Assembly: GCA_038845265.1 (NCBI GenBank)
Contig: JAWBQR010000004.1
Span: 45,978-109,977 of the forward strand
DNA: 64,000 bases
From: Nitrososphaerota archaeon
Lineage (GTDB): Archaea > Thermoproteota > Nitrososphaeria_A > Caldarchaeales > Calditenuaceae
Direction: 5' to 3'
Below the pieces are notes generated by a model. The model did no database searches. It saw nothing but the letters and a program-made list of their open reading frames with translations, and was not told the origin of the DNA. Shown in pieces: positions 9,822-30,831 of this stretch (the stretch's first letter is position 1; each line of letters begins with the position of its first letter). A program made the translations under genes and the position numbers.

Positions 9822-9895
9822 GAGCCCCGGGCGGGGGTCGAACCCGCGACCTGCCGCTTACAAGGCGGCCGCTCTACCACTGAGCTACCGGGGCC
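9822..9895 (-). tRNA. tRNA-Thr (anticodon UGU)
   Basis: Reverse complement: acceptor GCCCCGG/CCGGGGC, D-arm GCTC-AGTGGTA-GAGC, anticodon stem GCCGC/GCGGC with loop CUUGUAA (anticodon UGU), T-arm GCGGG-TTCGACC-CCCGC. No encoded CCA. Confidence 0.85.
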
Positions 9896-10942
9896 ATTAT
9901 TAAGAAATTAAAAAAGAACGATATTACTTTTTGTCTCTTCACTTACTCAGAGATAAAACCCAAATAATTACAATCCTTCAATCAGTGTTCTTTAGACAGC
10001 CATCATGGTCCTTATGTACATCAGAAAAGACTTGCTCAGCGCTCAAGATCATCTTCATTGACTCCGACTGGCCAGACACATCATCGCTGATATGAGTCTG
10101 TATCTTTTTGTTATTTATGTTTTCTGTTGCCTCTTATTAGTCAATCATCATTATCGATATCTTGCTTTTTGATAACTTTTTATTATTCCAGGCAAACCTA
10201 AGGGCTAGTACGTAGAGTAGAAACTACTGATTCATCTCTATGCCGACAAGAACTTGGAAAAAGGGCGTCCCATAAATTCAGGCGTTCTATTTAGACTATA
10301 AGCATGGATATAATCTGTGGAATCTATGCTGGTCTGCCGATAGAGAGGCTTACGAATTCTTTATATTCATCGACTTTGGCCGATATATTATGATGCTCAG
10401 AATTTTTTAATTGTTTCGCTAGTGTTTTCAGGGCTTCCAAACCTAGTATGGTCCCCACGTATGGAACTTAATCTTGGAGTGTGGGAAGCTAATCCTCCTA
10501 TAGACGTGTACGCCATGAGGACCGGTGAATGTGCGACTGAGTTAGAAGAATACTTAATAAATACTTTGCTAATTGCTTTTGAGATTCTAGACAGGCGGTG
10601 ATTCGTTTTATTTCAGAGATGGGAAATAAATATGATGGTTTATTCGCACTTCAGTTTAGAGAGACAAACAACGAGGACGAGGCGGACGTAATTTTTTTAT
10701 GCTGACCAACTAGGTATGGGGATTGGAGTGATAACATTTTTATCTAATACGCCTCCTTTTGAAGTAGTAGATTGTGAAGTCGGCATAGCAAACATATATG
10801 TGCGGTCTCTGGTTATACTTCATGAACTCTATCATACACTTGGAACCCATAAAACCATGAAAGAGGCTTCCTTTTGGGAATGAATGCAATTGGACAGGTT
10901 CATTATCGCAAATTCTAAATGCAGAATGACGGTTTTATATCT

Positions 10943-12127
10943 TTATTTTTGAGGAGTATCTGTTAGCTTCATTTTCAAAGGCAGTGGCATGTGTCTTCTG
11001 CTTGTCGAGATGTATATGATGTCTTCGTCTCTGATTCCTGCATCGATAAGTTTCTGGTCGTCATTCAGTCTTTTTGTGCCGTGGAGTATCTCTGGGTCTG
11101 GAAAGCTATATCTGAGGGCTATTATCTCTTTAAGAGTCTGGATAGTCCAGTCGGGATGAGCATTTATTGATTGTACCTGTTCTTCTACGTCCCCGCATAC
11201 TATGCATTCCTTCATTCTTGCGAGTTTTACTCTTGTTAATCTTGAATGTAATGCGTCATAGACAAACAACCCAGTATCGGGCTCGCCCAGTCTGCCTTTG
11301 TGTAAAAGTTTTATGACCTGAGTAGTCATGAGTCCTGCAATTGTGGCTGAGACGCTCTGAATTGCAGGCGACTTAGGTTTCAGCCTATCCCTCACTTCAA
11401 GGATTAATTTACTAAGTTCTGGAGCTAATTCATTAATAATATTCTCTAACTTACTATACTTTAGGTCGTATATCGTCTTAATATTTAATCTAAAAAGCTC
11501 TTCCGCTACTTCTCTGCTGATTACTATGCCTTGTTCCATCAGGTCCTTTACTAGCTCATCCGGACTCCTTCTCCTAAGCGTGCATTCAGCCAATCTCTCT
11601 TCACGTGATATGAGGTTTTCACCATGACATTCTAGACATGCAGTTCTTCCAGGAATCACTACTTGGACATTTCCATAAAATCCCTCAATGCTCCCATCGA
11701 CCATAGGCTTACCTAGCGAGACGCAGAGGGAATTTAACCATCTCCTAACACCCCAGCTATCAAGACACGAGCAGACTACGTCAGAATCCTCGAAGACTTT
11801 CTCAGGCAACTGTCTCACATCTGAATTGTAATACACAACGTCGACGAATCTATTCATACTTTTTATTTTTTGAGCAGCTACCTCACTTTTAGGCTTACCA
11901 ATATCATTCTCAGTGAATAGCATCTGTCTACTCAGGTTGCTTAACTCTACAACATCATTATCAATCAATACTAATTTTCCAATGCCCATTAATGCTAAGT
12001 TCTTAGCTACCTCGCAACCAAGTGCACCTACTCCCACAATAGCAACCGCACCATTCTGAACGGAGCTCTGATCCCATCCAGGAGTCCTTGCCTGCCTATC
12101 GTATCTTTCTTGAATTTCTGTGTCCAT
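10943..12127 (-). CDS. E1-like ubiquitin-activating enzyme (ThiF/MoeB adenylation domain + Zn motif + C-terminal possible ubiquitin-fold domain)
   Basis: RYDRQ...AIVGVGALGCEVAKNLALMGIGKLVLIDNDVVELSNLSRQ is the E1/MoeB nucleotide-binding fold. CLECHGEN and CIVCGD form the paired CxxC zinc motif. About 90 aa after the second CxxC could be a ubiquitin-fold/β-grasp domain like the C-terminal domain of eukaryotic E1s (inferred from position, not from a recognised motif). It is the last gene of the Ubl-E2-E1 operon. Confidence 0.85.
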   Translation of the reverse strand: MDTEIQERYDRQARTPGWDQSSVQNGAVAIVGVGALGCEVAKNLALMGIGKLVLIDNDVVELSNLSRQMLFTENDIGKPKSEVAAQKIKSMNRFVDVVYYNSDVRQLPEKVFEDSDVVCSCLDSWGVRRWLNSLCVSLGKPMVDGSIEGFYGNVQVVIPGRTACLECHGENLISREERLAECTLRRRSPDELVKDLMEQGIVISREVAEELFRLNIKTIYDLKYSKLENIINELAPELSKLILEVRDRLKPKSPAIQSVSATIAGLMTTQVIKLLHKGRLGEPDTGLFVYDALHSRLTRVKLARMKECIVCGDVEEQVQSINAHPDWTIQTLKEIIALRYSFPDPEILHGTKRLNDDQKLIDAGIRDEDIIYISTSRRHMPLPLKMKLTDTPQK

Positions 12128-12133
12128 GTTGTT

Positions 12134-12628
12134 TCAAAGATATACTGATGAGCTCTCAGGAGTGGCATAGAGATTTATGTATTGTCTAACCCTAGCAATG
12201 AATCGCTCTGGCCAATTCTTCATCTCGTGGGCTGCCCATGCATTTAGGGGATCGTCAGGGTTAGGGTTCGTCAATAGATTTTTCAAGGCTTCTATTACTG
12301 ATACAACATGCATATTGGGATACCAGTCCTTGTTAAGTATAGACTCACATATCCTAGCAGGAACCTCATCTGTAAAGTTTGGATGCCAGATCCTGGTGTG
12401 CCAAACTACCTGTGGAGGTGTGAATGGAAATGACCGCTGCAAAAAGATCTCAACGACGAATACTCCGCCCTCATATATCCCAGTACCAATTATTGTCCCC
12501 TTATAGTGTGTCAAATCTCCATATACAGCGTCGAAGGTAGGCTCATAGTTCCTGATTAACTGGTACTCTTGTGCTAGGCGCTTCTCCCACTTTGCCTGTG
12601 AGAGCATGCCTACCTCCGACGACTCCAT
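12134..12628 (-). CDS. E2-like ubiquitin-conjugating enzyme (UBC fold)
   Basis: Canonical UBC active-site block WHTRIWHPNFTDEVPARICESILNKDWYPNMHV (HPN motif, catalytic Cys, W-x-P). Length 164 aa. There is a 6-nt gap to the E1 gene and a 2-nt gap to the Ubl gene. Confidence 0.85.
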   Translation of the reverse strand: MESSEVGMLSQAKWEKRLAQEYQLIRNYEPTFDAVYGDLTHYKGTIIGTGIYEGGVFVVEIFLQRSFPFTPPQVVWHTRIWHPNFTDEVPARICESILNKDWYPNMHVVSVIEALKNLLTNPNPDDPLNAWAAHEMKNWPERFIARVRQYINLYATPESSSVYL

Positions 12629-12630
12629 GA

Positions 12631-12867
12631 CTATCCACCTACTGTCCTAGTGATCAGGACTAACTTGTCTCCTTCTGCTACGCCTGCTGAAGAAAGTGTT
12701 TCAGTGTCGTTCAGCGCACGGCCTTTATAGGTCAGACGAGTATCATCAGGCCTTAGCTTCTTCATAGCGCAGACACGCATCTTTATGGCGCCTATACTAG
12801 CTGTCGGAGGCACATCTAACTCAATTGGTGGGCCACCACCGACTGCCGGTACTATCCGGATCTTCAA
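12631..12867 (-). CDS. ubiquitin-like small modifier (beta-grasp), C-terminal Gly-Gly directly followed by stop
   Basis: 78-aa protein MKIRIVP...GDKLVLITRTVGG*. It starts with a beta-strand (K-I-R-I-V), has a hydrophobic patch region and ends in a GG C-terminus with no pro-peptide. It is the first gene of the operon with E2 and E1. Confidence 0.8.
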   Translation of the reverse strand: MKIRIVPAVGGGPPIELDVPPTASIGAIKMRVCAMKKLRPDDTRLTYKGRALNDTETLSSAGVAEGDKLVLITRTVGG

Positions 12868-13056
12868 ATCTACTCAACGGTTTTTTAGCCAGTGGCATAT
12901 AAAAATGTTAACTTAACTCCAGAAGCTAGTCATGGCTACATTATCGATGTAGCACACCACCATTGAGGTATTCTCTACAGAGTCTTAAGAAAATACATAT
13001 TTAGCAGTTAAAAAAGCCGAGTTTATAGGCAAGCTTAACATATATATTCCAAAGAA
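12868..13056. promoter_or_regulatory. divergent promoter region between Ubl-E2-E1 operon and JAMM gene
   Basis: A TATA-like element on the minus strand (complement of GCATATAAAAATG, 12895-12907) sits ~30 bp upstream of the Ubl start. TATA-like TTTATAGG (13022-13029) sits ~30 bp upstream of the JAMM start, implying near-leaderless mRNAs. Between them is the inverted repeat CTACAT-tatcg-ATGTAG (12936-12952). Confidence 0.4.
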
Positions 13057-13674
13057 TTGCGGGTTAGGATATTTCCCGTGGCGTTGGGTAAAGTTATCTA
13101 TCATGCATCAACTAGCCCTAATGTTGAGGTGGCAGGATTATTGCTGGGCAAAGAGACGAGAGGAATAGTTGAGGTGTGGGACGCTGTTACTGGGCCACAG
13201 GAGGGGCACGCTGGATATGTAAAATTAAATGAGGAAGTCATGGCGATTGTAGCAGAAAAATTAATGACGCTTGGATTAGATATTTACATAGTTGGTTGGT
13301 ATCATTCTCACCCTGGATATGGTCTCTTTCTCTCCGCAATAGATGTCCGCACCCAGCTTGCATATCAAGCCTTATATCCAAAATCAATAGCGTTAGTAAT
13401 CGATCCATCCAAGTTTATAGAGCATGGAGACATAACTGATGTTGCATTTAAAGTTTTTAGAGTAGACGGTAAATTAGGAGTAATCGAAGTACCGTCATCC
13501 ATAGGCATGGATAGGAAAAAGGTATTGGAGTCTACACTTGCCGCTCTTAAAGGGTTAAACATTGACAACTCATTTCTGCTTCAAGAGTCGCCCTTAATGT
13601 TTGACAGAGCTAAGAAAGCCCTAGTAGATGTCGGTAAGAAGATATTTAGACGTGAAGTGGTGAGCAAGAAATGA
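13057..13674 (+). CDS. JAMM/MPN+ metalloisopeptidase (Rpn11/deubiquitinase-like) with C-terminal extension
   Basis: JAMM motif E-x(n)-HSHPGYGLFLSAID (EVAGLLLGK ... WYHSHPGYGLFLSAIDV). The gene is divergent from the Ubl operon across 189 bp. The ORF begins at TTG 13057, with a TATA-like TTTATAGG about 31 bp upstream. About 70 extra C-terminal residues lie beyond the MPN core. Confidence 0.85.
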   Translation: MRVRIFPVALGKVIYHASTSPNVEVAGLLLGKETRGIVEVWDAVTGPQEGHAGYVKLNEEVMAIVAEKLMTLGLDIYIVGWYHSHPGYGLFLSAIDVRTQLAYQALYPKSIALVIDPSKFIEHGDITDVAFKVFRVDGKLGVIEVPSSIGMDRKKVLESTLAALKGLNIDNSFLLQESPLMFDRAKKALVDVGKKIFRREVVSKK

Positions 13675-14456
13675 GTGAACGAAAGAAGATAGTAATTAAA
13701 AGGCGTTTATTTGACCAGGCACCAGAAGGCACCTTGCCATTAGTTCCTGAGACTGAGAAACCCAAGGAGAGAGAAGAAGACTTGACTTCTCAGCAACAGC
13801 AACCATTTGAAAATCTGAGCAAACCTCATGATTTATCAATTATTGATGCAGCAATTGAAAGATTTAATGAATTAATGAATAAAATAACTGAAATTAGGAG
13901 TAGGGATAGAACTATGCAGAAAGTTTTCCATAGGCAAGACTTTGTAGATCTAAGAGTGATAAAAAAGAAGCTGGATGAGTTGACAAACATGAGGAGCGAG
14001 GTATTGGCTGATGCCGGGCCAGTCGAGAATCTTCTTAATGAAGCTGTCAGCGTACTGGAAGCAGAGATGGTGAAACTTGAAGAGCAGTTATTTGAAAAAT
14101 TAGTAGAGATTGAATCTATTAGGGATTCTAATAATAAGTTGGAAATAGATAAATCAATACTCGAAAAACTCGAGGAAGAAGCTGACCGTATACGTGAAAA
14201 TATTTCCTCCGTTCATGGAAGAATATCTGAACTCCAATCAAAGATAGAACAGTTGAAGTCATTACCTCAGTCTATTAATGAATTAACTACGAGTGATGAG
14301 ATAGCTGAACCTCTCCTTAGGGATCTTATTTCCAGATTCAAGGATGAGGCAAGGGTCAATTCTGCAATTGAGAAAGTAATGCAAGATGAAGCAGTTCCGA
14401 AGCAATATGCAATAATATATTTGTGGAAAAGGCTCTATAAACCGAAAGTATCATGA
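13671..14456 (+). CDS. coiled-coil protein of unknown function, translationally coupled to the JAMM gene
   Basis: 261 aa, Cys-free. Disordered acidic/Q-rich N-terminus, then long heptad-like helices (ELTNMRSEVLADAG...LEAEMVKLEEQLFEKLVEIESIRD...). Its ATG overlaps the JAMM stop (ATGA at 13671-13674). Confidence 0.55.
   Translation: MSERKKIVIKRRLFDQAPEGTLPLVPETEKPKEREEDLTSQQQQPFENLSKPHDLSIIDAAIERFNELMNKITEIRSRDRTMQKVFHRQDFVDLRVIKKKLDELTNMRSEVLADAGPVENLLNEAVSVLEAEMVKLEEQLFEKLVEIESIRDSNNKLEIDKSILEKLEEEADRIRENISSVHGRISELQSKIEQLKSLPQSINELTTSDEIAEPLLRDLISRFKDEARVNSAIEKVMQDEAVPKQYAIIYLWKRLYKPKVS

Positions 14457-29339: not shown

Positions 29340-30831
<1,492 letters not shown>

Follow-up and report, generated by a model that had tools for sequence, protein, structure and literature searches.

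A directly encoded Gly-Gly terminus in a Caldarchaeales ubiquitin operon and its place among related loci with and without a pro-peptide

An operon of ubiquitin, E2 and E1 genes accompanied by a divergent Rpn11-like gene was first described in Caldiarchaeum subterraneum (Nunoura 2011, PMC3082918). This Caldiarchaeum operon serves as the chief experimental model for how eukaryotic ubiquitylation arose from prokaryotes. The C. subterraneum system (Nunoura 2011, Hennell James 2017, Fuchs 2018) consists of CsRpn11 (C1473), CsUb (Csub_C1474), an E2 (C1475), an E1 (C1476) and the RING E3 srfp (C1477). CsUb is an 87-aa precursor, from which CsRpn11 cuts a 9-aa tail precisely after Gly78 (PMC6043591, PMC5654768). 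Uncut CsUb is refractory to E1; CsUb that has been cut by Rpn11, or that carries a stop engineered after the di-glycine, is activated and loaded onto E1 and E2 (PMC5654768). Isopeptide conjugates and linear ubiquitin fusions are further substrates of CsRpn11 (PMC6043591, PMC5654768). The pro-peptide of Caldiarchaeum ubiquitin was presented as a eukaryote-like trait (PMC3082918), and aigarchaeal pro-ubiquitin has been described in general as being first cut by Rpn11 (Hua 2018, PMC6053391). An earlier note on the DNA analyzed here had stated that Caldiarchaeum pro-ubiquitin needs Rpn11-like processing, and this is correct (PMC6043591, PMC5654768).

We analyzed a related locus in a 64-kb stretch of DNA, referred to as the window, in which the ubiquitin gene encodes its Gly-Gly end directly. 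The gene was identified from its sequence and homology at 12631..12867 on the minus strand, where the earlier note had placed it with the same terminus. Its 78 codons, beginning with a TTG start (12867-12865), read MKIRIVPAVGGGPPIELDV...GDKLVLITRTVGG and end in ...LVLITRTVGG. The stop codon directly after Gly77-Gly78 had been given as TAA, and the sequence reads TAG (12633-12631). The end of the gene on the reverse strand is ACA GTA GGT GGA TAG TC ATG GAG, in which the two bases TC separate the stop from the E2 start codon, an ATG at 12628. The Pfam family PF00240 (ubiquitin) matches the ORF with E=1.7e-12, and identity to CsUb is 76% over all 78 residues. Among PDB entries, those of CsUb (6fj7, 2mqj, 6fnn) match with E~1e-35. 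In a HMMER alignment to polyubiquitin, G78 pairs with G76 of human ubiquitin, so that the di-glycine of ...TRTVGG corresponds to Gly75-Gly76 of ubiquitin. No ThiS/MoaD family was found among the Pfam matches, the best family being ubiquitin. Judged by the Pfam match, the identity to CsUb and the PDB matches, which rule out a chance ORF, the reading frame is a real gene. Upstream of it lies the divergent intergenic region (12868..13056, no strand assigned). Read directly from the sequence, this region contains an AT-rich TATA-like element on the minus strand (TTTTTATAT, ~12905-12897), which is a putative promoter of the ubiquitin gene about 34 nt upstream of the TTG.

The ubiquitin gene opens a compact operon, in which E2 and E1 follow. 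The E2-like ubiquitin-conjugating enzyme (164 aa; 12134..12628, minus strand; Pfam UQ_con, E=6e-29) begins with an ATG 2 nt after the ubiquitin stop. Its HPN motif and catalytic Cys94 are invariant in the alignment with the C. subterraneum E2, and its E3-contacting loop 4 keeps P-[YF]. The E1-like activating enzyme (394 aa; 10943..12127, minus strand; ThiF, E=5e-62) is 46-82% identical to the E1 of related operons, and its C-terminus shows a weak, sub-threshold Pfam match to a ubiquitin fold at residues 322-376. The Rpn11-like JAMM metalloprotease (205 aa, TTG start; 13057..13674; JAB, E=6e-17) is encoded divergently on the plus strand. It matches CsRpn11 (PDB 6fju) with E=1.3e-49; its catalytic motif EVAG...HSHPGYGLFLSAID is intact, and the metal site HSHPG...S..D is conserved. 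The start of the next gene on the plus strand (13671..14456) overlaps the JAMM stop (ATGA). It encodes a conserved coiled-coil protein of 261 aa, whose Pfam matches, to coiled-coil or helical families, all stay below threshold. A homologue of this protein is found downstream of the JAMM gene in two of the clades described below, A and B; the C. subterraneum counterpart lies at L026:3426-4220.

The Val-Gly-Gly codons of ubiquitin, GTAGGTGGA, provide a Shine-Dalgarno-like AGGTG ahead of the E2 gene, and this motif is complementary to the 3' end of the 16S rRNA (...GGATCACCTCC). The potential pairing would fit a coupling of E2 translation to that of ubiquitin. We additionally noted two candidate E2 starts, both of which are used in public annotations: the ATG at 12628, giving 164 aa and an N-terminus MESSEVG that is conserved with relatives, versus the ATG at 12607, giving 157 aa and preceded by a perfect GGAGGT. 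A complete archaeal 16S rRNA gene is located at 29340-30831 (plus strand), and about 200 nt downstream of it an ORF of protein length begins on the other strand. No Rfam match to 23S (LSU) rRNA at the gathering threshold was found anywhere in the 64-kb window; the rRNA genes may be unlinked. A 100-nt tRNA match at 52508-52607 (plus strand; 47 bits, Rfam) is not called by ARAGORN and may be an intron-containing archaeal tRNA. Between E1 and a tRNA-Thr gene, about 1 kb (9895-10942) is without an ORF of at least 60 aa. Of the six public assemblies with the identical ubiquitin, four have the matching stretch mostly without a gene call, and one assembly calls a 94-aa ORF. This interval contains an ORF fragment (10716-10883, plus strand) with the metzincin-like motif HELYHTLGTH (HExxHxxGxxH; weak Pfam metallopeptidase match, E=0.12) and a sub-threshold C/D-box sRNA candidate (10033-10088, minus strand; 25 bits versus a gathering score of 45).

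In order to compare the C-terminus with those of orthologues, we followed the ubiquitin frame in translation up to the stop codon in 65 species-level loci from species-representative genomes, all of which belong to MAGs of the Caldarchaeales/"Aigarchaeota". The frame ends exactly at Gly-Gly in 34 of the 65 loci and continues into tails of 1-20 residues in the other 31. The wider protein database likewise holds a mixture of GG-ending and tailed forms. When the ubiquitin was run by HMMER against 1.84 billion representatives, eukaryotic polyubiquitins dominated the matches, and only three more distant single-domain relatives were added, ending in TVGG (P0143), TTGGG (P0150) and GG followed by AALFQ (P0081). 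The GG end is thus an ordinary variant, and the earlier claim that it marks a functional departure from the described systems was overstated. As 34 of 65 loci end at Gly-Gly, the tail of Caldiarchaeum ubiquitin is a lineage-specific state, and the generalisation that aigarchaeal ubiquitin is first cut by Rpn11 (PMC6053391) fails for about half of the order. A literature search found no earlier description of GG-ending aigarchaeal ubiquitins, although one may still exist. The window locus has a ubiquitin fold, the TRTVGG end, the operon with E2 and E1, and a divergent, intact JAMM gene, as is typical of the CsUb family, and lacks two further traits, srfp downstream of E1 and the C-terminal pro-peptide. 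The latter is no family-defining trait, being absent from the same 34 of 65 loci.

The distribution of the two forms was examined on a midpoint-rooted and therefore unpolarized NJ tree of E2 and E1. Clade A comprises the window and L001-L018, and every member on the tree is GG-ending; identities within it are 78-99% for the ubiquitin-like protein and 74-97% for E2. Clade B (Caldarchaeum, Pelearchaeum, HR01) is tailed throughout, and clade C (Wolframiiraptor, Geocrenenecus, Terraquivivens) is a mixture of both forms. According to Fitch parsimony, the tail state changed at least five times on this tree. One locus, L007, is without E2 and E1 and therefore off the tree. Its ubiquitin (L007:5001-5240) ends in GG-R-stop and is adjoined by the JAMM and coiled-coil genes; as neither E2 nor E1 occurs in the 5 kb downstream, it looks split or orphaned.

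Inspection of the ubiquitin/E2 junctions points to the origin of the tails. An E2 start was mapped in 29 tail-bearing loci, and in 25 of these the codons of the tail fall within the E2 ORF. E2 begins 1-7 nt after the Gly-Gly codons in 24 of the 25 loci and 8 nt before them in L029. In the overlapping loci the ubiquitin frame enters the E2 gene by 11-35 nt, and the tail ends at a TGA embedded in the conserved E-L-P-E codons of E2 (GAG CTx CCT GAx); an example from C. subterraneum is L026:5235-5264. Where ubiquitin and E2 do not overlap, the ubiquitin almost always ends at Gly-Gly, the exceptions being L019, L045, L052 and L007. In the clade of the window the E2 start is equally near (5-7 nt), but a stop codon follows immediately after Gly-Gly. 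The two states are only a few bases apart: in C. subterraneum GGA is followed by T ATG GAG, and in the window by TAG TC ATG GAG. Read from these junctions, the pro-peptide in most tail-bearing species, among L020-L065, is the overlapped 5' end of the E2 gene translated in a different frame. We regard as a modest new point that the pro-peptide results from the overlap between the ubiquitin and E2 genes and is labile in evolution.

A broader reading goes beyond this and is at present tentative, having in our estimate considerably less than an even chance of being right. It holds that the pro-peptide is a by-product of the overlap that was gained or lost at least five times and is no ancestral, eukaryote-like step of maturation, and that the window clade has a streamlined system consisting of a ready ubiquitin, E2, E1 and a JAMM acting only as deubiquitinase, with no dedicated RING E3. 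If so, conjugation in this clade would proceed without proteolytic maturation as a gate and without srfp to direct it.

The relation of the protease to the tail bears on its function. Among loci with enough upstream sequence, the JAMM gene adjoins ubiquitin in 24 of 31 GG-ending loci versus 26 of 29 tailed ones (Fisher's exact test, p=0.30); JAMM adjacency is independent of the presence of a tail. The full motif E...HxHx7Sx2D is present in all 53 adjacent JAMM proteins, including all 26 that are encoded beside GG-ending ubiquitins, the window among them. No JAMM gene was detected within 5 kb in a Calditenuis sub-clade (L011-L013, L015-L018, all GG-ending); these loci contain the trio of GG-ending ubiquitin, E2 and E1, but neither the coiled-coil gene nor srfp within 5 kb. 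The Rpn11-like protease is kept with or without a tail, so that its two activities are separated in nature, which suggests that deconjugation is the conserved activity. The suggestion of the earlier note that the adjacent JAMM would serve deconjugation only fits both the intact motif in 26 of 26 GG-ending loci and the tail-independent adjacency.

These observations, together with the biochemistry of the C. subterraneum proteins, suggest the following mechanism. Translation would directly yield mature ubiquitin of 78 residues, whose C-terminal Gly-Gly is free. E1 would adenylate Gly78 and form the thioester without prior proteolysis, and the ubiquitin would then pass to Cys94 of E2 and from there to lysines of target proteins. 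The divergent Rpn11-like JAMM would have no role in maturation and would act as a deconjugating, that is recycling, enzyme. We consider this scheme as a whole likely, on the basis of an orthologous system that is 76% identical in ubiquitin and roughly 46-50% identical in JAMM. The first part, conjugation readiness of the translated product as proposed earlier, is well supported by inference, since the window gene corresponds, as a natural gene, to the engineered construct Ubq-GG, in which a stop was placed after the di-glycine (Hennell James et al. 2017). The two differ by 24% sequence divergence.

A different division of labour would leave the ubiquitin ready-made but assign the JAMM mainly to another task, such as the processing of tailed Ubl or SAMP precursors or of linear fusions. 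C. subterraneum encodes tailed SAMP-type Ubls (PMC3082918), and the cleavage of linear ubiquitin fusions by CsRpn11 mentioned above would fit such a role; the window JAMM could have other substrates encoded elsewhere in the genome. Against this, CsRpn11 is specific for CsUb and leaves SAMP precursors uncut, which are handled by a separate CsJAMM (PMC6043591), and the protease still stands beside ubiquitin in most GG-ending loci (the 24 of 31 given above). We therefore regard a mainly different task of the JAMM as unlikely and retain deconjugation as its probable function.

The window locus also differs in its E3 gene content. In C. subterraneum, srfp follows E1 (L026:6910-7134; zf-RING_2, 6.5e-10). 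We searched for srfp by tblastn with the C. subterraneum protein, with a RING regular expression and with an HMM built from 33 srfp sequences. No credible match to srfp or any RING was obtained in the 64 kb of the window or, up to 5 kb from the operon, in L001-L018, the 18 closest species loci; the best srfp match in the window (E=0.12) falls within the aconitase gene, on the strand opposite to it. Of the clade B and C loci whose sequence extends past E1, nearly all score 1e-16 to 1e-34 for srfp. An srfp profile search of 5.8 billion proteins gave no match on long clade A contigs. The JAMM control of this search missed a gene known on the 1.55-Mb contig of L004, where it is clear by tblastn, and the negative result of the profile search therefore carries little weight. 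Overall, the ubiquitin of the window clade is GG-ended and srfp was not detected close to the operon; this combination is again a modest new point. As a separate observation, many clade B and C loci encode a second RING protein of roughly 270 aa with a C-terminal RING-H2, about 1.5 kb past srfp. It is found for example at L026:8286-9095 (zf-RING_2, 2e-9), recurs among L022-L065 and is absent from the window.

In the reconstituted C. subterraneum system, modification of a substrate (Rad50) in vitro required srfp. This requirement and the lack of an srfp or RING match in the window and within 5 kb in L001-L018 could be taken to mean that the system is a reduced remnant, which, without pro-peptide and RING E3, would be confined to E1/E2 auto-modification or would have a role other than conjugation. 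On the other side, ubiquitin, E2, E1 and JAMM are intact and highly conserved across clade A, the catalytic Cys and HPN of E2, the JAMM motifs and the P-[YF] of E2 loop 4 are all kept, and an E3 may be encoded elsewhere in the genome. A remnant is thus, in our judgement, quite improbable, and an active conjugation system with ready-made ubiquitin is preferred.

The proposed mechanism presupposes that translation ends at the TAG. This codon terminates 10 of the 49 long ORFs in the window and is an ordinary stop in this DNA. The nearest species (L001 and L002; 97% and 95% identical) use TAG too, more distant members of the clade stop at the equal position via TGA or TAA, and all 17 E2-linked loci of the clade stop right after Gly-Gly with one of the three codons. 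The exact 78-aa ubiquitin is found on at least 24 public contigs. In six independent NCBI MAG assemblies (L066-L071) the junction ...GGT GGA TAG TC ATG... is identical, as are the TTG start and the upstream TTTTTATAT stretch.

Read-through or recoding of the TAG would add a short tail, X-SWSRRR, for removal by the JAMM, and a second in-frame TAG is indeed present 7 codons downstream. This is very unlikely: besides the use of TAG as a stop in other window ORFs, relatives place TGA or TAA at the site, the downstream in-frame peptide is not conserved, and the bases 3' of the stop encode E2 in a different frame. A non-stop reading of TAG was accordingly rejected on the basis of the 10 of 49 long ORFs and the other stops in relatives. 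A sequencing or assembly error that hides a longer CsUb-like precursor, named beforehand as a possible refutation, has a negligible probability and is ruled out by the six identical independent assemblies, in addition to the exact product on at least 24 contigs and the three different stop codons at 17 of 17 E2-linked clade loci.

The pro-peptide is therefore an optional feature, with about half of the species being without one. In practice this matters little. Annotation pipelines and models should not presume Rpn11-dependent maturation, and a simpler system for reconstitution is available in the GG-ending, srfp-less clade.

Directly encoded Gly-Gly ends are usual for Urm1, the Haloferax SAMPs (SAMP1-3) and MoaD/ThiS, for which no maturation protease is required. 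Systems of this type use only an E1-like enzyme, of the MoeB/UbaA type, without an E2, and their Ubls double as sulfur carriers. The window ubiquitin resembles them in its directly encoded terminus, which has also been noted for archaeal MoaD-type Ubls (Nunoura 2011, PMC3082918), but differs in that a eukaryote-type E2 gene follows and in that its sequence is much closer to eukaryotic ubiquitin.

Among bacterial systems, type II BilABCD (Chambers et al., bioRxiv 10.1101/2023.09.26.559546) is similar in comprising an operon with Ubl, E2, E1 and a JAB deubiquitinase. BilABCD homologues differ in how many residues, up to nine, extend past the reactive glycine, and the JAB pre-processes the tailed Ubl (bioRxiv 10.1101/2023.09.26.559546). 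Compared by description, BilABCD differs from the window in its E1, which is a pseudo-dimer of IAD and AAD without a UFD, in the E2 family and in its function in antiviral defence.

The closest counterpart is the C. subterraneum operon. Gene order and orientation are the same, with a divergent JAMM gene followed by ubiquitin, E2 and E1; the coiled-coil gene adjoins the JAMM gene in both, and both ubiquitins have the mature C-terminus LITRTVGG. Identities are 76% for ubiquitin, ~60% for E2, ~51% for E1 and ~46% for JAMM. The window differs in that the stop directly after Gly-Gly replaces the 9-residue pro-peptide, in that a 2-nt gap separates ubiquitin and E2, compared to a 29-nt overlap in C. 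subterraneum, and in that no srfp was found after E1 or anywhere in the 64 kb. Overall, the locus is a modest variant of the Caldarchaeales ubiquitin system already described.
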